Source: Escherichia coli (GTDB lineage: Bacteria > Pseudomonadota > Gammaproteobacteria > Enterobacterales > Enterobacteriaceae). Taken from it: a stretch of 64,000 nucleotides of DNA. The stretch lies in the NCBI RefSeq assembly GCF_050320075.1, contig NZ_CP190018.1. One strand, written 5' to 3'. The notes below the pieces were generated by a model, which was given only the letters and a program-made list of their open reading frames with translations, was not told where the DNA came from and ran no database searches. Below, one piece after another: positions 1 to 61,004 of the stretch (positions are counted from its first letter, which is position 1; every line of letters begins with the position of its first letter). The position numbers were made by a program, and so were the translations under genes.

Positions 1-287
1 GTTTTGCCGCCTGTATGGATTCATCAAATGAATATAAAAAAATCAGCCCCCTTCTGCGCAAGGGCGAAAATGAAATTAACCAATGGGCTGACCGTCATTC
101 TGTTGAGCGCGCTACCGTTCAGGCGATACAATGGCTGACCCGAGCACCCGATCGCTTTAGCGCCGCCCAGTTCAGCCCTTTACTCGAACACGAAAAATCA
201 TCAACGCAGATTATTAATCTGCTGGTATGGAGCGGGCTGTGTGGCTGGATAAATCGCTTAGAAATCGCGTTGGGTGAGACATATTAA
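1..287 (+). CDS. yciW: 3' portion of an uncharacterised CMD-family-like protein; the 5' end lies outside the window
   Basis: Open frame runs from the window edge (in frame with ORF 15..287) and sits immediately upstream of rnb as in the E. coli map. Gene identity is from position and memory, not from a domain match. Confidence 0.45.
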
Positions 288-13432: not shown

Positions 13433-13804
13433 AGCTCCTCCTTAATGACAGGGTTGCGAAGCCCTGATTCTCTTCAGGGTGAATATTAAAGATAACACAA
13501 ACATCGCGTAACGATTTGATAACAACCCAAATTGATAAAAGAGGAGAAAGCTTGTGGCAAAACAAATGAAAACCCCGCCGCAGCGGGGTCAGGGATCAGT
13601 GAGTAATGATCCAGAGGAGTTCGGCCCAGAAGAGCATCGACAGAGAAAATGCGCCCATCCAGGACCAATATTTCATATTTGTGTTGATCATAGGCTACAC
13701 CTTTAACGGTTATTACTTTGTGTTGAGATAACTCAACCTGTTATTGCTGCGGTGTATTAAAAGCCCTGTAATTCATTAAAAATGGGTAATAAGAATGATG
13801 ATAA

Positions 13805-21536: not shown

Positions 21537-21592
21537 CGGTAATGGTGCCAACTTACTGATTTAGTGTATGATGGTGTTTTTGAGGTGCTCCC

Positions 21593-21868
21593 GTGGCTTC
21601 CATCTCCATCAGTTGTCCCTCCTGCTCAGCTACTGAAGGCGTGGTGCGTAACGGTAAAAGTACTGCCGGACATCAGCGCTATCTCTGCTCTCACTGCCGT
21701 AAAACATGGCAACTGCAGTTCACTTACACCGCTTCTCAACCCGGTACACACCAGAAAATCATTGATATGGCCATGAATGGTGTTGGATGCCGGGCAACCG
21801 CCCGCATTATGGGCGTTGGCCTCAACACGATTTTACGTCACTTAAAAAACTCAGGCCGCAGTCGGTAA
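21593..21868 (+). CDS. insA: IS1 InsA (transposition repressor / N-terminal part of the transposase), 91 aa
   Basis: [46 protein letters not shown] with a zinc-finger motif; canonical InsA. Confidence 0.9.
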
Positions 21869-22290
21869 CCTCGCGCATACAGCCGGGCAGTGATGTGATT
21901 GTCTGCGCTGAAATGGACGAACAGTGGGGCTACGTCGGTGCTAAATCACGTCAGCGCTGGCTGTTTTACGCGTATGACAGGATACGGAGGACGGTTGTGG
22001 CGCACGTCTTCGGTGAACGCACTCTGGCCACACTGGAGCGTCTTCTGAGCCTGCTGTCGGCCTTTGAGGTCGTGGTATGGATGACGGATGGCTGGCCGCT
22101 GTATGAATCCCGCCTGAAGGGAAAGCTGCACGTAATCAGCAAGCGTTACACTCAGCGCATTGAGCGACATAACCTGAATCTGAGACAACATCTGGCAAGG
22201 CTGGGACGGAAGTCACTGTCGTTCTCAAAATCGGTGGAGCTGCATGACAAAGTCATCGGGCATTATCTGAACATAAAACACTATCAGTAA
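21787..22290 (+). CDS. insB: IS1 InsB frame; expressed as the InsAB' transposase by -1 frameshifting at A6C (21844..21850)
   Basis: ORF overlapping the insA 3' end in the -1 frame; contains [21 protein letters not shown] typical of InsB. Confidence 0.85.
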
Positions 22291-22319
22291 GTTGGAGTCA
22301 TTACCGCTTCAAATGAAGA

Positions 22320-25367: not shown

Positions 25368-25988
25368 TTATAAGAAAGGCTTCACATCACCTACGCCTTC
25401 ACGCACCACGACCGGCGTATCATCAGTAAGATCAATAACCGTTGTTGGTTTCTGCCCGAGATAGCCGCCGTGAATAATCAAATCTACCTGTTTTTCCAGA
25501 CGGTCTTTAATTTCTTCCGGATCGGATTCGGTAAATTCGCTACCTGGCAGCATCAGTGATGTGGAAAGCATCGGTTCGCCCAATGCTTCAAGCAGCGCCT
25601 GCGCAATCGGGTTAGAAGGCACACGCATACCGATGGTTTTGCGTTTTTCCTGCAACAGACGGCGTGGCACCTCCTTCGTCCCTTTCAGGATGAAGGTGTA
25701 GTTGCCCGGCGTGTTGTTTTTCATTAAACGAAACGCAACGTTATCCACGAATGAATAGGTCGAGAGCTCAGAAAGATCGCGACACATCAGGGTAAAGTTG
25801 TGACCGTCCGGCAGCTGGCGAATACGACAAATACGCTCCATGGCGTTTTTATCTTCAATTTTACAGCCGAGCGCATAGCCGGAATCAGTTGGATAAACAA
25901 TCACCCCGCCTTTACGCACGATCTCCACCGCCTGGTTGATCAGACGTTGCTGCGGGTTATCAGGATGAATATAAAAAAACTGGCTCAT
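25368..25988 (-). CDS. yciO: YrdC/Sua5-family protein YciO, 206 aa
   Basis: ORF 25368..26024 trimmed to MSQFFYIHPDNPQQRLINQAVEIVRKGGVIVYPTDSGYALGC (YrdC fold signature). Confidence 0.85.
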   Translation of the reverse strand: MSQFFYIHPDNPQQRLINQAVEIVRKGGVIVYPTDSGYALGCKIEDKNAMERICRIRQLPDGHNFTLMCRDLSELSTYSFVDNVAFRLMKNNTPGNYTFILKGTKEVPRRLLQEKRKTIGMRVPSNPIAQALLEALGEPMLSTSLMLPGSEFTESDPEEIKDRLEKQVDLIIHGGYLGQKPTTVIDLTDDTPVVVREGVGDVKPFL

Positions 25989-26866
25989 AATTCCCTCTCT
26001 GTGGTGTTCTGCGGCTGTTCCCATAGCTGCCAGACGCCTTCAACGCCTGCAGGCAGCCAGAGTTTACGACCCAGTTCAATCCACGGGCACGGCTGATGAA
26101 AATCAGATCCTTGTGATGCCCATAAATGATGCTGACGCGCAAGTGTGGCCAGCTGGGTGCGTTCATTGGGCGATTGCTGGCACTGCGCGACTTCCATCGC
26201 GTCGCCGTGGTGTTCGGCAAAATGCGCAACCAATCTTTTCAGCCATTTAGCACTAAGATTGTACCGCCCAGGATGAGCTAGCACCGCCTTACCGCCAGAA
26301 TGATGAATGACATCAATAGCTTGTTCTATTGTACACCACTGTGGCGGAACGTATCCGGTTTTCCCGCGCGCCAGATATTTTTTAAAGACATCCGCCATTG
26401 AACTGGCTTTGCCGCACTCCACAAGGAAACGCGCAAAATGACCGCGCGTCACCGCACCGCCCTGCGCCAGTCGTTGCGCGCCTTCCAGCGCCCCAGGTAT
26501 TTGCGCTTTTTCAAGTCTTTCAGCAATCAGCTGCGCCCGCTGATTGCGCCGTTCTGTCTGCTGCGCGAGGAACTCACACATTAGCGGATGAGTAATATCA
26601 ATATTCAGCCCGACAATATGAATTTCATGATTTTCCCAGACCGTGGAAATTTCCACGCCGGGAATAAGATTCAGCGCCAGTCCCGAACGTGAAATTTCCT
26701 CTCTTGCTGGTGAGATTGCAGCTGTGGTGTCATGGTCGGTGATCGCCAGGGTGCCGACGCGCATCTCGACTGCACGGTGCACCAATGCTTCTGGCGTCAG
26801 GCAGCCATCGGAAGCTGTGGTATGGCTGTGCAGGTCGTAAATCACTGCGTAATTCGTGTCGCTCAA
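25985..26866 (-). CDS. trpH: PHP-domain phosphoesterase / 5'-3' exoribonuclease RNase AM (TrpH/YciV), 293 aa
   Basis: PHP motif YDLHSHTTASDG at the N-terminus; 293 aa; divergent from the trp promoter; stop overlaps the yciO start by 4 nt. Confidence 0.85.
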   Translation of the reverse strand: MSDTNYAVIYDLHSHTTASDGCLTPEALVHRAVEMRVGTLAITDHDTTAAISPAREEISRSGLALNLIPGVEISTVWENHEIHIVGLNIDITHPLMCEFLAQQTERRNQRAQLIAERLEKAQIPGALEGAQRLAQGGAVTRGHFARFLVECGKASSMADVFKKYLARGKTGYVPPQWCTIEQAIDVIHHSGGKAVLAHPGRYNLSAKWLKRLVAHFAEHHGDAMEVAQCQQSPNERTQLATLARQHHLWASQGSDFHQPCPWIELGRKLWLPAGVEGVWQLWEQPQNTTEREL

Positions 26867-26941
26867 GGCGCACTCCCGTTCTGGATAATGTTTTTTGCGC
26901 CGACATCATAACGGTTCTGGCAAATATTCTGAAATGAGCTG

Positions 26942-26978
26942 TTGACAATTAATCATCGAACTAGTTAACTAGTACGCA
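26942..26978 (+). promoter_or_regulatory. trp promoter with TrpR operator
   Basis: -35 ttgaca (26942..26947), 17-bp spacer, -10 ttaact (26965..26970); operator palindrome cgaactagttaactagtacg overlaps the -10. Confidence 0.85.
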
Positions 26979-27003
26979 AGTTCACGTAAAAAGGGTATCG
27001 ACA

Positions 27004-27048
27004 ATGAAAGCAATTTTCGTACTGAAAGGTTGGTGGCGCACTTCCTGA
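27004..27048 (+). CDS. trpL: trp operon leader peptide, 14 aa ([14 protein letters not shown])
   Basis: Hand translation; tandem Trp codons tgg tgg at codons 10-11. Confidence 0.9.
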
Positions 27049-27090
27049 AACGGGCAGTGTATTCACCATGCGTAAAGCAATCAGATACCC

Positions 27091-27118
27091 AGCCCGCCTA
27101 ATGAGCGGGCTTTTTTTT
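27091..27118 (+). terminator. trp attenuator (3:4 terminator hairpin)
   Basis: agcccgcctaatgagcgggc followed by tttttttt, located 20 nt upstream of trpE. Confidence 0.85.
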
Positions 27119-27139
27119 GAACAAAATTAGAGAATAACA

Positions 27140-28702
27140 ATGCAAACACAAAAACCGACTCTCGAACTGCTAACCTGCGAAGGCACTTATCGCGACAACC
27201 CGACTGCGCTTTTTCACCAGTTGTGTGGGAATCGTCCAGCAACGCTGCTGCTGGAATCCGCAGATATCGACAGCAAAGATGATTTAAAAAGCCTGCTGCT
27301 GATAGACAGTGCGCTGCGCATTACAGCATTAGGTGACACTGTCACAATTCAGGCACTTTCTGGCAATGGCGAAGCCCTGCTGGCACTACTGGATAACGCC
27401 CTGCCTGCGGGTGTGGAAAGTGAACAATCACCAAACTGCCGTGTGCTGCGCTTCCCCCCTGTCAGTCCACTGCTGGATGAAGACGCCCGCTTATGCTCCC
27501 TTTCTGTTTTTAACGCTTTCCGTTTATTGCAGAATCTGTTGAATGTACCGAAGGAAGAACGAGAAGCCATGTTCTTCGGCGGCCTGTTCTCTTATGACCT
27601 TGTGGCGGGATTTGAAGATTTACCGCAACTGGCAGCGGAAAATAACTGTCCTGATTTCTGCTTTTATCTCGCAGAAACGCTGATGGTGATTGACCATCAG
27701 AAAAAAAGCACCCGCATTCAGGCCAGCCTGTTTGCTCCGAATGAAGAAGAAAAACAACGTCTCACTGCTCGCCTGAACGATCTTCGCCAGCAGCTGACCG
27801 AAGCCGCGCCACCGCTGCCGGTGGTTTCCGTGCCGCATATGCGTTGTGAATGTAATCAGAGCGATGAAGAGTTCGGTGGCGTAGTGCGTTTGTTGCAAAA
27901 AGCGATTCGCGCTGGAGAAATTTTCCAGGTGGTGCCATCTCGCCGTTTCTCTCTGCCCTGCCCGTCACCGCTGGCGGCCTATTACGTGCTGAAAAAGAGT
28001 AATCCCAGCCCGTACATGTTTTTTATGCAGGATAATGATTTCACCCTGTTTGGCGCGTCGCCGGAAAGTTCGCTCAAGTATGACGCCACCAGCCGCCAGA
28101 TTGAGATCTACCCGATTGCCGGAACACGCCCGCGCGGTCGTCGCGCCGATGGCTCGCTGGACAGAGACCTCGACAGCCGCATCGAACTGGAAATGCGTAC
28201 CGATCATAAAGAGCTTTCTGAACATCTGATGCTGGTGGATCTCGCCCGTAATGATCTGGCACGCATTTGCACCCCCGGCAGCCGCTACGTCGCCGATCTC
28301 ACCAAAGTTGACCGTTACTCTTACGTGATGCACCTGGTCTCCCGCGTGGTCGGTGAGCTGCGCCACGATCTCGACGCCCTGCACGCTTACCGCGCCTGTA
28401 TGAATATGGGGACGTTAAGCGGTGCGCCGAAAGTACGCGCTATGCAGTTAATTGCCGAGGCGGAAGGTCGTCGCCGCGGCAGCTACGGCGGCGCGGTAGG
28501 TTATTTCACCGCGCATGGCGATCTCGACACCTGCATTGTGATCCGCTCGGCGCTGGTGGAAAACGGTATCGCCACCGTGCAAGCCGGTGCTGGCGTGGTA
28601 CTTGATTCTGTTCCGCAGTCGGAAGCCGACGAAACCCGTAATAAAGCCCGCGCTGTACTGCGCGCTATTGCCACCGCGCATCATGCACAGGAGACGTTCT
28701 GA
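27140..28702 (+). CDS. trpE: Anthranilate synthase component I, 520 aa
   Basis: 520 aa chorismate-binding enzyme; first gene after the attenuator. Confidence 0.95.
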
Positions 28703-30297
28703 TGGCTGACATTCTGCTGCTCGATAATATCGACTCTTTTACTTACAACCTGGCAGATCAGTTGCGCAGCAATGGTCATAACGTGGTGATTTACCGCAAC
28801 CATATTCCGGCGCAGACCTTAATTGAACGCCTGGCGACAATGAGCAATCCGGTGCTGATGCTTTCTCCTGGCCCCGGTGTGCCAAGTGAAGCCGGTTGTA
28901 TGCCGGAACTCCTCACCCGCCTGCGCGGCAAGCTGCCAATTATTGGCATTTGCCTCGGTCATCAGGCGATTGTCGAAGCTTATGGGGGGTATGTCGGTCA
29001 AGCGGGCGAAATTCTTCACGGTAAAGCCTCCAGCATTGAACATGACGGTCAGGCGATGTTTGCCGGATTAACAAACCCGCTGCCAGTGGCGCGTTATCAC
29101 TCGCTGGTTGGCAGTAACATTCCGGCCGGTTTAACCATCAACGCCCATTTTAATGGCATGGTGATGGCGGTGCGTCACGATGCAGATCGCGTTTGTGGAT
29201 TCCAGTTCCATCCGGAATCCATTCTTACTACCCAGGGCGCTCGCCTGCTGGAACAAACATTGGCCTGGGCGCAGCAGAAACTGGAACCGACTAACACGCT
29301 GCAACCGATTCTGGAAAAACTGTATCAGGCGCAGACGCTTAGCCAGCAAGAAAGCCACCAGCTGTTTTCAGCGGTGGTGCGTGGCGAGCTGAAGCCAGAA
29401 CAGCTCGCGGCGGCGCTGGTGAGCATGAAAATTCGCGGCGAGCACCCGAACGAAATCGCCGGGGCAGCAACTGCCCTTCTGGAAAATGCTGCGCCATTCC
29501 CGCGCCCGGATTATCTGTTTGCCGATATCGTCGGCACCGGTGGTGACGGCAGCAACAGTATCAATATTTCTACCGCCAGTGCGTTTGTCGCCGCGGCCTG
29601 TGGGCTGAAAGTGGCGAAACACGGCAACCGTAGTGTCTCCAGTAAATCCGGTTCGTCGGATCTGCTGGCGGCATTCGGTATTAATCTTGATATGAACGCC
29701 GATAAATCGCGCCAGGCGCTGGATGAGTTAGGCGTCTGTTTCCTCTTTGCGCCGAAATATCACACCGGATTTCGCCACGCGATGCCGGTTCGCCAGCAAC
29801 TGAAAACCCGCACCCTGTTCAACGTGCTGGGGCCACTGATTAACCCGGCGCATCCTCCGCTGGCGTTAATTGGTGTTTATAGTCCGGAACTGGTGCTACC
29901 GATTGCCGAAACCTTGCGCGTGCTGGGGTATCAACGCGCGGCAGTGGTGCACAGCGGCGGGATGGATGAAGTTTCATTACACGCGCCGACAATCGTTGCC
30001 GAACTGCATGACGGCGAAATTAAGAGCTATCAATTGACCGCTGAAGATTTTGGCCTGACCCCCTACCACCAGGAGCAACTGGCAGGTGGAACACCGGAAG
30101 AAAACCGTGACATTTTAACACGCTTGTTACAAGGTAAAGGCGACGCCGCCCATGAAGCAGCCGTCGCGGCGAATGTCGCCATGTTAATGCGCCTGCATGG
30201 CCATGAAGATCTGCAAGCCAATGCGCAAACTGTTCTTGAGGTACTGCGCAGTGGTTCCGCTTACGACAGAGTCACCGCACTGGCGGCACGAGGGTAA
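28702..30297 (+). CDS. trpD: Anthranilate synthase component II / anthranilate phosphoribosyltransferase (bifunctional TrpGD), 531 aa
   Basis: N-terminal glutamine amidotransferase (GICLGHQ) and C-terminal phosphoribosyltransferase; ATG overlaps the trpE TGA (tgATGg). Confidence 0.95.
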
Positions 30298-31659
30298 ATG
30301 ATGCAAACCGTTTTAGCGAAAATCGTCGCAGACAAGGCGATTTGGGTAGAAACCCGCAAACAGCAGCAACCGCTGGCCAGTTTTCAGAATGAGATTCAGC
30401 CGAGCACGCGACATTTTTATGATGCGCTACAGGGTGCACGCACGGCGTTTATTCTTGAGTGCAAGAAAGCCTCGCCGTCAAAAGGCGTGATCCGTGATGA
30501 TTTCGATCCGGCACGCATTGCCGCCATTTATAAACATTACGCTTCGGCAATTTCGGTGCTGACTGATGAGAAATATTTTCAGGGGAGCTTTGATTTCCTC
30601 CCAATCGTCAGCCAAATCGCCCCGCAGCCGATTTTATGTAAAGACTTCATTATCGACCCTTACCAGATCTATCTGGCGCGCTATTACCAGGCCGATGCCT
30701 GCTTATTAATGCTTTCAGTACTGGATGACGAACAATATCGCCACCTTGCCGCCGTCGCCCACAGTCTGGAGATGGGCGTGCTTACCGAAGTCAGTAATGA
30801 AGAGGAACTGGAGCGCGCCATTGCATTGGGGGCAAAGGTCGTTGGCATCAACAACCGCGATCTACGTGATTTGTCGATTGATCTCAACCGTACCCGCGAG
30901 CTTGCGCCGAAACTGGGGCACAACGTGACGGTAATCAGCGAATCCGGCATCAATACTTACGCTCAGGTGCGCGAGTTAAGCCACTTCGCTAACGGTTTTC
31001 TGATTGGTTCGGCGTTGATGGCCCATGACGATTTGAACGCCGCCGTGCGCCGGGTGTTGCTGGGTGAGAATAAAGTATGTGGCCTGACGCGTGGGCAAGA
31101 TGCTAGAGCCGCTTATGACGCGGGCGCGATTTACGGTGGGTTGATTTTTGTTACAACGTCACCGCGTTGCGTCAACGTTGAACAGGCGCAGGAAGTGATG
31201 GCTGCGGCACCGTTGCAGTATGTTGGCGTGTTCCGCAATCACGATATTGCCGATGTGGTGGACAAAGCTAAGGTGTTATCGCTGGCGGCAGTGCAACTGC
31301 ATGGTAATGAAGATCAGCTGTATATCGATACGCTGCGTGAAGCTCTGCCAGCACACGTTGCCATCTGGAAAGCATTAAGCGTCGGTGAAACCCTGCCCGC
31401 CCGCGAGCTTCAGCACGTTGATAAATATGTTTTAGACAACGGCCAGGGTGGAAGCGGTCAACGTTTCGACTGGTCACTGTTAAACGGTCAATCGCTTGGC
31501 AACGTTCTGCTGGCGGGGGGCTTAGGCGCAGATAACTGCGTGGAAGCGGCACAAACCGGCTGCGCCGGACTTGATTTTAATTCTGCTGTAGAGTCGCAAC
31601 CGGGCATCAAAGACGCACGTCTTTTGGCCTCGGTTTTCCAGACGCTGCGCGCATATTAA
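30298..31659 (+). CDS. trpC: Bifunctional indole-3-glycerol-phosphate synthase / phosphoribosylanthranilate isomerase, 453 aa
   Basis: 453 aa; starts directly after the trpD stop. Confidence 0.95.
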
Positions 31660-31670
31660 GGAAAGGAACA

Positions 31671-32864
31671 ATGACAACATTACTTAACCCGTATTTTGGT
31701 GAGTTTGGCGGCATGTACGTGCCACAAATCCTGATGCCTGCTCTGCGCCAGCTGGAAGAAGCTTTTGTCAGCGCGCAAAAAGATCCTGAATTTCAGGCTC
31801 AGTTCAACGACCTGCTGAAAAACTATGCCGGGCGTCCAACCGCACTCACCAAATGCCAGAACATTACGGCTGGCACTAACACCACGCTGTATCTCAAGCG
31901 CGAAGATTTGCTGCACGGCGGCGCGCATAAAACCAACCAGGTGCTCGGCCAGGCTTTGCTGGCGAAGCGGATGGGTAAAACGGAAATCATCGCCGAAACC
32001 GGAGCCGGTCAGCATGGCGTGGCGTCGGCCCTTGCCAGCGCCCTGCTCGGCCTGAAATGTCGCATTTATATGGGTGCCAAAGACGTCGAGCGCCAGTCGC
32101 CTAACGTTTTTCGTATGCGCTTAATGGGTGCGGAAGTGATCCCGGTGCATAGCGGTTCCGCGACGCTGAAAGATGCCTGTAATGAGGCGCTACGCGACTG
32201 GTCCGGCAGTTATGAAACCGCGCACTATATGCTGGGCACCGCGGCTGGCCCGCATCCTTACCCGACCATTGTGCGTGAGTTTCAGCGGATGATTGGCGAA
32301 GAAACGAAAGCGCAGATTCTGGAAAGAGAAGGTCGCCTGCCGGATGCGGTTATCGCCTGTGTTGGCGGCGGTTCGAATGCCATCGGCATGTTTGCTGATT
32401 TCATCAACGAAACCGACGTCGGCCTGATTGGTGTGGAGCCTGGCGGTCACGGTATCGAAACTGGCGAGCACGGCGCACCGTTAAAACATGGTCGTGTGGG
32501 CATCTATTTCGGTATGAAAGCGCCGATGATGCAAACCGAAGACGGGCAGATTGAAGAATCTTACTCCATCTCCGCCGGACTGGATTTCCCGTCTGTCGGC
32601 CCACAACACGCGTATCTTAACAGCACTGGACGCGCTGATTACGTGTCAATTACCGATGATGAAGCACTGGAAGCCTTCAAAACGCTCTGCCTGCACGAAG
32701 GGATCATCCCGGCGCTGGAGTCCTCCCACGCCCTGGCCCATGCGCTGAAAATGATGCGCGAAACCCCGGAAAAAGAGCAGCTACTGGTGGTTAACCTTTC
32801 CGGTCGCGGCGATAAAGACATCTTCACCGTTCACGATATTTTGAAAGCTCGAGGGGAAATATGA
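31671..32864 (+). CDS. trpB: Tryptophan synthase beta chain, 397 aa
   Basis: 397 aa PLP enzyme; the PLP-lysine context HGGAHKTNQ is present. Confidence 0.95.
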
Positions 32865-33670
32865 TGGAACGCTACGAATCTCTGTTTGCCCAGTTGAAGG
32901 AGCGCAAAGAAGGCGCATTCGTTCCTTTCGTCACGCTCGGTGATCCGGGCATTGAGCAGTCGCTGAAAATTATCGACACGCTAATTGAAGCCGGTGCTGA
33001 CGCGCTGGAGTTAGGTATCCCCTTCTCCGACCCACTGGCGGATGGCCCGACGATTCAAAACGCCACACTGCGTGCCTTTGCGGCAGGTGTGACCCCGGCA
33101 CAGTGCTTTGAGATGCTGGCACTGATTCGCCAGAAGCACCCGACCATTCCCATCGGCCTTTTGATGTATGCCAACCTGGTGTTTAACAAAGGCATTGATG
33201 AGTTTTATGCCCAGTGCGAGAAAGTCGGCGTCGATTCGGTGCTGGTTGCCGATGTGCCAGTGGAAGAGTCCGCGCCCTTCCGCCAGGCCGCGTTGCGTCA
33301 TAATGTCGCACCTATCTTTATTTGCCCGCCGAATGCCGACGATGATTTGCTGCGCCAGATAGCCTCCTACGGTCGTGGATACACCTATTTATTGTCACGT
33401 GCGGGCGTGACCGGCGCAGAAAACCGCGCCGCGTTACCCCTCAATCATCTAGTCACGAAGCTGAAAGAATACAATGCTGCGCCTCCATTGCAGGGCTTTG
33501 GTATTTCCGCCCCGGATCAGGTAAAAGCAGCGATTGATGCAGGAGTTGCGGGCGCGATTTCTGGTTCGGCCATCGTTAAAATCATCGAGCAACATATTAA
33601 TGAGCCAGAGAAAATGCTGGCGGCACTGAAAGCTTTTGTACAACCGATGAAAGCGGCGACGCGCAGCTAA
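32864..33670 (+). CDS. trpA: Tryptophan synthase alpha chain, 268 aa
   Basis: ORF trimmed to [22 protein letters not shown]; ATG overlaps the trpB TGA by 1 nt. Confidence 0.95.
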
Positions 33671-33676
33671 TCCCAC

Positions 33677-33704
33677 AGCCGCCAGTTCCGCTGGCGGCAT
33701 TTTA
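33677..33704 (+). terminator. trp operon terminator (trp t)
   Basis: cagccgccagttccgctggcggc hairpin followed by atttt. Confidence 0.8.
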
Positions 33705-36229: not shown

Positions 36230-36422
36230 TTTTAAATATTTTCGCTACGCAAATATTAACTCGTTCGCCACTTGCCGCGGTTTGCCCACGCCTGAAGGCC
36301 AGCAATTACCTCCGCTTTACAAAGATATGCTTTTCCATACAAGACCTGATGCTGCCACCCGAGGCTTAACCAGGGTACAATTGCCCGCTAATTAACACCT
36401 GCATAAAACTCAAGGAGAGTGC

Positions 36423-60265: not shown

Positions 60266-60350
<85 letters not shown>

Positions 60351-60384
60351 TCTCAAGCATTACCTCAAAATTTGAATTACCCCT

Positions 60385-60469
<85 letters not shown>

Positions 60470-61004
60470 TCACTTTCAAAAGTCCGTGAACTCTCAAACG
60501 AATCCGCGATTAAATATTCTGCCCATGCGGGGAAGGATGAGAAGCTTCGACCAAGGTTCGACTCGAGCGCCAGCGAGAGAGCGTGGCCGCAGGCAACGAC
60601 CCGAAGGGCGAAGCGCGCAGCGCTGAGTAATCCTTCCCCCACCACCATAACTTTCAAAAGCCCCGGAATTCTCAAACGAATCCGCAATCAAATATTCTGC
60701 CCATGCGGGGAAGGATGAGAAGCTTCAACCAAGGTTCGACTTGAGCGCCAGCGAGAGAGCGTTGCCGCAGGCAACGACCCGAAGGGCGAAGCGCGCAGCG
60801 CTGAGTAATCCTTCTCCCACCACCATCACTTTTCAAAAGTCCGTGAACTCTCAAACGAATCCGCAATTAAATATTCTGCCCATGCGGGGAAGGATGAGAA
60901 GCTTCGACCAAGGTGCGACTCGAGCGCCAGCGAGAAAGCGTTGCCGCAGGCAACGACCCGAAGGGTGAAGCGCGCAGCGCTGAGTAATCCTTCCCCCACC
61001 ACCA
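60470..61004 (+). repeat. rtT: Three tandem 178/179-bp tRNA-derived repeats distal to tyrV (rtT RNA / tpr region)
   Basis: Units 60470..60647, 60648..60825 and 60826..61004, each ending with the tRNA-Tyr 3' segment aatccttc[c/t]cccaccacca; a partial fourth start follows. Confidence 0.85.
60525..60626 (+). CDS. tpr: Arg-rich protamine-like small ORF (Tpr-like), 33 aa, in repeat unit 1
   Basis: Hand translation [33 protein letters not shown]; unit 2 copy has a premature stop, unit 3 copy is a 28-aa variant. Whether it is translated cannot be judged from sequence. Confidence 0.4.

Follow-up and report, generated by a model that had tools for sequence, protein, structure and literature searches.

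The native trp promoter, operator, leader peptide and attenuator on a 64-kb stretch of Escherichia coli DNA

In the window (the whole 64-kb stretch of DNA that was analysed), the trp operon lies on the + strand, which is the reverse of its orientation in E. coli K-12 MG1655. The genes follow each other in the order yciO and rnm on the - strand, trpL-trpE-trpD-trpCF-trpB-trpA on the + strand, and then yciG, yciF, yciE, and ompW. The operon and its neighbouring elements occupy the following positions:

25985-26866, - strand: the divergent neighbour rnm (trpH/yciV, RNase AM), with a TTG start at 26866, 75 bp from the trp -35 hexamer
26942-26947, + strand: -35 hexamer of the trp promoter, TTGACA, read directly; it agrees with the consensus at 6 of 6 positions and is the same as in MG1655
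26957-26976, + strand: TrpR operator, CGAACTAGTTAACTAGTACG, a 20-bp palindrome with 18/20 symmetry and a core at 26958-26975
26965-26970, + strand: -10 hexamer of the trp promoter, TTAACT, at the operator dyad, after a 17-bp spacer from the -35 hexamer
26978, + strand: predicted transcription start (+1), the A of AAGTTCACG, placed by K-12 identity and the published K-12 start site
26991-26996, + strand: Shine-Dalgarno sequence of trpL, AAGGGT, 7 nt before the ATG, read directly
27004-27048, + strand: ORF of the trpL leader peptide, 14 codons and a TGA stop, from translation; the peptide is WP_001700591.1 in the identical record
27025-27118, + strand: match to Rfam RF00513 (Trp_leader), 93.1 bits, model positions 1-100 of 100
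27031-27036, + strand: tandem Trp codons TGG TGG (codons 10-11; +54..+59), the sensing site
27031-27045, + strand: attenuator segment 1 (+54..+68), which pairs with segment 2 to give the 1:2 pause hairpin
27051-27069, + strand: attenuator segment 2 (+74..+92), the partner of segment 1 or 3
27085-27098, + strand: attenuator segment 3 (+108..+121), the partner of segment 2 (antiterminator) or of segment 4 (terminator)
27091-27118, + strand: attenuator terminator, made of the 3:4 hairpin AGCCCGCC-TAAT-GAGCGGGCT (27091-27111) and T8 (27111-27118), from the terminator scan, the fold, and the Rfam structure line
27140-33670, + strand: structural genes trpE, trpD, trpC(F), trpB, and trpA (520, 531, 453, 397, and 268 aa)
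33678-33698, + strand: operon-end terminator trp t, GCCGCCAGTTCCGCTGGCGGC followed by ATTTT, with 9 pairs of which 7 are G-C, from the terminator scan

All five structural genes are full-length, contain no internal stops, and carry no pseudogene flag, and trp t starts 8 nt past the trpA stop. In addition, we found that positions 14000-38000 of the window match, at 100% identity, the chromosome of E. coli YZLc1-3 (NZ_CP123240.1), which comes from chicken faeces in Yangzhou. In that record PGAP annotates trpL and a 'Trp leader region' at the same positions, within a native rnm / trpL-trpEDCBA / yciG arrangement.

A sigma-70 promoter was defined here by -35 and -10 hexamers spaced 16-18 bp apart and a start 6-8 bp past the -10. 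Both hexamers are present at the trp promoter with a spacing of 17 bp, and the start site was taken from K-12 knowledge. From position 26978, a leader of 162 nt extends to the trpE ATG at 27140. The operator is a palindrome with CTAG-containing half-sites that overlaps the promoter, and the -10 hexamer sits at its centre. Its core at 26958-26975 reads GAACTAGTTAACTAGTAC and was matched without mismatch by the pattern GNACTAGTTAACTAGTNC, which occurs once in the 64-kb window against 0.09 occurrences expected by chance. On the basis of established knowledge of the E. coli trpEDCBA operon, we take the palindrome at 26957-26976 to be the TrpR operator, and from the identity to K-12 we infer that TrpR would bind and repress here in a tryptophan-dependent manner.

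A generic sigma-70 scan, whose rule requires A at position 2 of the -10, missed the trp promoter: TTAACT has a T there and agrees with TATAAT at just 3 of 6 positions. This poor -10 match is a known property of the trp promoter. The miss is a limit of the scan rule and no evidence against the promoter. Meanwhile, the sole sigma-70-like site that the scan reported nearby was TTCAGA-17-TATGAT at 26933..26905 on the - strand, upstream of rnm. This site may be a divergent rnm promoter, predicted to stand back to back with the trp promoter.

Downstream of the promoter, the parts of a trp-type ribosome-mediated attenuator are all present, including a leader ORF with its own Shine-Dalgarno sequence and tandem cognate codons, and an intrinsic terminator upstream of the first structural gene. 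In the terminator scan, the stem of the hairpin (27091-27111) consists of 7 pairs, of which 6 are G-C. The hairpin runs into exactly eight T, its end lies 21 nt before the trpE ATG, and the same bases are paired in the Rfam structure line. The match to RF00513, the enterobacterial trp leader family, scored well above the gathering score of 41 (93.1 bits, E = 3.6e-20) and was not truncated, and no other Rfam family was found within 26000-28000 at E <= 1. Both consensus helices of this family (1:2 and 3:4) are formed here by standard pairs. Relative to the RF00513 consensus, the sequence lacks 5 nt of the unpaired linker that joins the helices and has one 1-nt gap in the loop of 1:2, as is usual in E. 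coli.

An earlier note, made from the letters of this DNA, had described the region as a textbook trp control region with a -35 ttgaca, a -10 ttaact embedded in the operator palindrome, a 14-codon leader with tandem Trp codons, and an attenuator hairpin with a U8 tract, all in the expected register. Every one of these elements was recovered, and their coordinates and spacings are correct to the base. For instance, the note begins at the first base of the -35 hexamer (26942) and ends at the last T of the tract (27118), the -10 lies at the dyad of the 18/20-symmetric palindrome, TGG TGG stands at 27031-27036 of the ORF, and the hairpin leads directly into T8. The textbook label also agrees with the Rfam Trp_leader match, the RefSeq trpL label, and the complete trpEDCBA downstream.

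The 141-nt leader folds with a minimum free energy (MFE) of -46.9 kcal/mol, compared with -33.5 ± 3.6 for shuffled sequences (z = -3.69), and none of the 200 shuffles folded as well. When stretches of the leader were folded separately, the three helices of the attenuation model had the following energies:

+50..95, + strand: helix 1:2, -17.5 kcal/mol
+70..122, + strand: helix 2:3, -15.6 kcal/mol
+105..141, + strand: helix 3:4, -14.0 kcal/mol

In the 2:3 helix, CGGGC (+74..78) is paired with GCCCG (+115..119), a stretch that belongs to the terminator's 5' arm, and this makes 2:3 and 3:4 mutually exclusive. The folding check that the earlier note had proposed for the alternative 2:3 and 3:4 pairings bore them out: 1:2, 2:3, and 3:4 all fold and exclude one another.

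To represent the nascent RNA, +1..+121 or +1..+125 was folded, that is, the transcript before segment 4 has been made, with masks for the ribosome footprint. When either UGG-10 or UGG-11 was masked, the MFE structure was the antiterminator, with 11 pairs of 2:3. In the absence of a ribosome, helix 1:2 took up 14-16 pairs, there were zero 2:3 pairs, and all 8 nt of +114..+121 were unpaired. With the mask at the UGA stop, segment 2 was covered, no 2:3 pairs formed, and +114..+121 was again wholly unpaired. Among these nascent-RNA folds, 2:3 was formed only with the mask on a UGG codon, and the choice of pairing was set by the position of the ribosome. The switch obtained in silico matches the attenuation model of Yanofsky. 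Furthermore, from K-12 work and the identity of the sequence, we infer that pausing and the termination or readthrough response to tryptophan would occur here as well.

By contrast, in equilibrium folds of the full +1..+141 with the mask on the UGG codons, 2:3 never formed and 3:4 had a probability of ~1. Such a result without a switch is expected, because the attenuation decision is kinetic, and the attenuation mechanism is understood as co-transcriptional. Equilibrium folding of the full-length leader was rejected as an attenuation test for the reason that the decision is made during transcription. In these models, it is solely the co-transcriptional (kinetic) framing that supports the antiterminator.

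A further pairing was seen in the MFE fold, in which the Shine-Dalgarno region of trpL, GGGUAUC (+16..22; 26993-26999), is paired with GAUACCC (+106..112; 27083-27089) just upstream of the terminator. This presumably corresponds to an older proposal, in which the leader RNA, once terminated, masks its own ribosome-binding site.

For the comparison with K-12, 801 bp (window 26586-27386) were aligned with the MG1655 genome (NC_000913.3). We found 0 differences over the 335 bp of 26850-27184, a block that spans the whole rnm-trpL intergenic region, the promoter, the operator, the leader, the attenuator, and the first 45 nt of trpE. The earlier note had named alignment to the E. coli trp regulatory region as a check, and substitutions in the tandem Trp codons or the terminator stem as what would count against it; relative to K-12 MG1655 there are none. 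All 16 SNPs are located in the coding flanks of rnm or trpE (<=26849 or >=27185; 466 bp), and the probability that zero of 16 SNPs would fall in the block is P = 1.5e-4 if uniform SNP placement is assumed. Judged from this alignment, the control block is better conserved than the coding flanks.

The closest known system is trpL (b1265) of MG1655 itself, at ~1322947-1323220 (complement) of NC_000913.3, which has the same peptide (WP_001700591.1), the same neighbours, and an identical control block. The copy here differs from it in the + orientation and in SNPs of the flanking coding sequence, from 26849 in rnm and from 27185 onwards in trpE.

Across the species, a megablast search found the region 26860-27145 in 5,421 of 5,426 complete E. 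coli genomes. The RefSeq labels at these places are 'trpL: trp operon leader peptide' and 'Trp leader region', between rnm and trpE. The repressor gene trpR, whose locus is outside the window, was likewise found in 5,421 of the 5,426. The region is absent from 5 of the 5,426 genomes, and trpR is absent from five.

To survey variation, the most divergent E. coli alleles (98.0-99.5% identity) were sampled. None of these alleles had a change in the UGG codons or in any of the four stem segments. The changes were found in the promoter spacer (-27, -24), the outer operator (-20, -15), position -1, codon 9, the terminator loop (+123), and the length of the U tract, which went from 8 to 7. For example, strains Z142-6 and NT1N28 have a Gly9Ala leader peptide (WP_001386774.1), and the vampire-bat strain A19 has a U7 instead of a U8 tract.

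In addition, strain Z1323HEC0477 (NZ_CP148323.1, 1915893-1916098) carries an 8-bp tandem duplication of AACTAGTT inside the trp operator, which gives GAACTAGTTAACTAGTTAACTAGTAC. The first -10 hexamer is still 17 bp from the -35, the operator gains one 8-bp register, and a second -10 is shifted. Going by its position, this duplication might change how TrpR occupies the operator or where transcription starts; alternatively, it may be an artefact of assembly.

We are close to certain that these elements make up the native, chromosomal trpLEDCBA control region of E. coli, with its two classical control layers. It is already known, and it is the known thing itself and not a relative. Nothing substantive stands against this identity. 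On this reading, sigma-70 RNA polymerase would use the promoter TTGACA-17 bp-TTAACT, and initiation would be blocked when tryptophan-bound TrpR dimers occupy the palindromic operator that covers the -10. Polymerase that starts at 26978 would be paused by the 1:2 hairpin until a ribosome begins to translate trpL. When charged tRNA-Trp is scarce, the ribosome would stall at the tandem UGG codons and cover segment 1; the 2:3 antiterminator would then form, and polymerase would read through into trpE. When tRNA-Trp is plentiful, the ribosome would reach the UGA stop and cover segment 2, which would leave segment 3 free for segment 4. The 3:4 hairpin and the U8 tract would then end transcription at about +141 (27118). 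In K-12, roughly 70-80-fold regulation comes from repression and roughly 8-10-fold from attenuation.

The same logic is shared by hisL, pheL, thrL, leuL, and ilvL, in which a leader ORF rich in cognate codons, alternative hairpins, and an intrinsic terminator precede the structural genes. Compared with those operons, trp has just two regulatory codons and, in addition, the repressor TrpR at its promoter.

The alternative that survives best concerns the role of the 141-nt product and not the identity of the locus. Its main role could be that of a trans-acting, Hfq-dependent sRNA, rnTrpL, together with the peptide peTrpL, and not that of a cis attenuator alone. According to a 2025 review (PMC12612679), the 140-nt E. 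coli rnTrpL has been reported to pair with and destabilise dnaA mRNA and to affect sanA, mhpC, rsuA, and bcr, and the original work on Sinorhizobium meliloti is PMC6614838. Because the sequence here is identical to that of K-12, any rnTrpL activity would carry over. However, a role in trans comes on top of cis attenuation, not in its place, and it is already published and not novel. We regard this alternative as possible but rather doubtful as an account of the main role. The trpL/rnTrpL of S. meliloti is likewise an attenuator for Trp, and its product after termination works in trans; an analogous role has been reported for the 140-nt RNA of E. coli (PMC6614838, PMC12612679). However, S. meliloti differs from E. 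coli in that it has no TrpR, its trp operons are split, the targets are different (trpDC), and the sequences are unrelated at this level.

A related point is whether the invariance of 26850-27184, beside a divergence of ~3.4% in the flanks, reflects more than the classical promoter, operator, and attenuator, which we consider unlikely. Possible extra constraints are a divergent rnm promoter, the Shine-Dalgarno pairing of +16..+22 with +106..+112, and the target-pairing surfaces of the rnTrpL sRNA. To some extent, all of these have been raised in earlier literature, so the reading is only mildly new.

With trpR located outside the window, it could also be supposed that an apparently intact control region has become uncoupled in function through a defect in the operon or the repressor, which would make its elements relics. 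However, the flanking coding DNA has diverged more than the regulatory block, and trpR is present in nearly all complete genomes, as counted above. A degraded operon was rejected, since all five genes are intact, with no internal stop or pseudogene flag in any of them. Such uncoupling is very improbable.

Finally, non-native copies of the trp promoter and leader do exist (a query of 198-286 bp also matched 6-9 plasmid places, and up to 3-4 places in some genomes), but an engineered or vector-derived copy at this locus has a negligible probability and was rejected on synteny and on the 24-kb identity to a natural chromosome, as over 24 kb the window runs colinear with the chromosome of a natural chicken isolate at 100% identity, the neighbours are native (rnm diverging upstream, the full trpEDCBA, trp t, and yciG downstream), and no vector sequence adjoins. 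The trp promoter and leader are widely used in expression plasmids, and the plasmid and multi-copy matches are probably expression constructs or engineered strains.

With the native locus as the preferred reading, the region is of value solely as a control: it shows that the window comes from the E. coli chromosome, that the trp operon is on its + strand, and that the positions in the earlier note, which had offered the region as an internal check on strand and coordinates, are accurate to the base. The promoter, operator, and attenuator of trp are among the best-characterised regulatory regions, the copy here equals the reference, and no open question is touched.

Several other elements were observed in the window. 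A complete 768-bp IS1 is located at 21538-22305, in the cobO(btuR)-rluB intergenic region, 5 kb upstream of the trp region. Its ends are inverted (GGTAATGGTGCCAACTTACTGAT and ATCAGTAAGTTGGAGTCATTACC), and its transposase has a programmed frameshift. There was no clean target-site duplication at this IS1, the flanking 9 bp being GCTTTAATC on one side and GCTTCAAAT on the other. This IS1 is also the reason for thousands of extra BLAST places, plasmids included.

Furthermore, the Rfam sRNA STnc180 (RF02079) was matched with 201.6 bits at 13562-13764 on the - strand, upstream of acnA in the ymiC/yciX region. At about 36306-36395, between ompW and yciC, there is a fragment of a YkgJ-family cysteine-cluster protein with its N-terminus missing, which PGAP annotates as a pseudogene. 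Three tandem RtT repeats (RF00391, 127-132 bits each) come after a pair of tRNA genes at 60266-60347 and 60385-60466; the whole array spans 60266-61004 and is probably the tyrT-tyrV/rtT locus.
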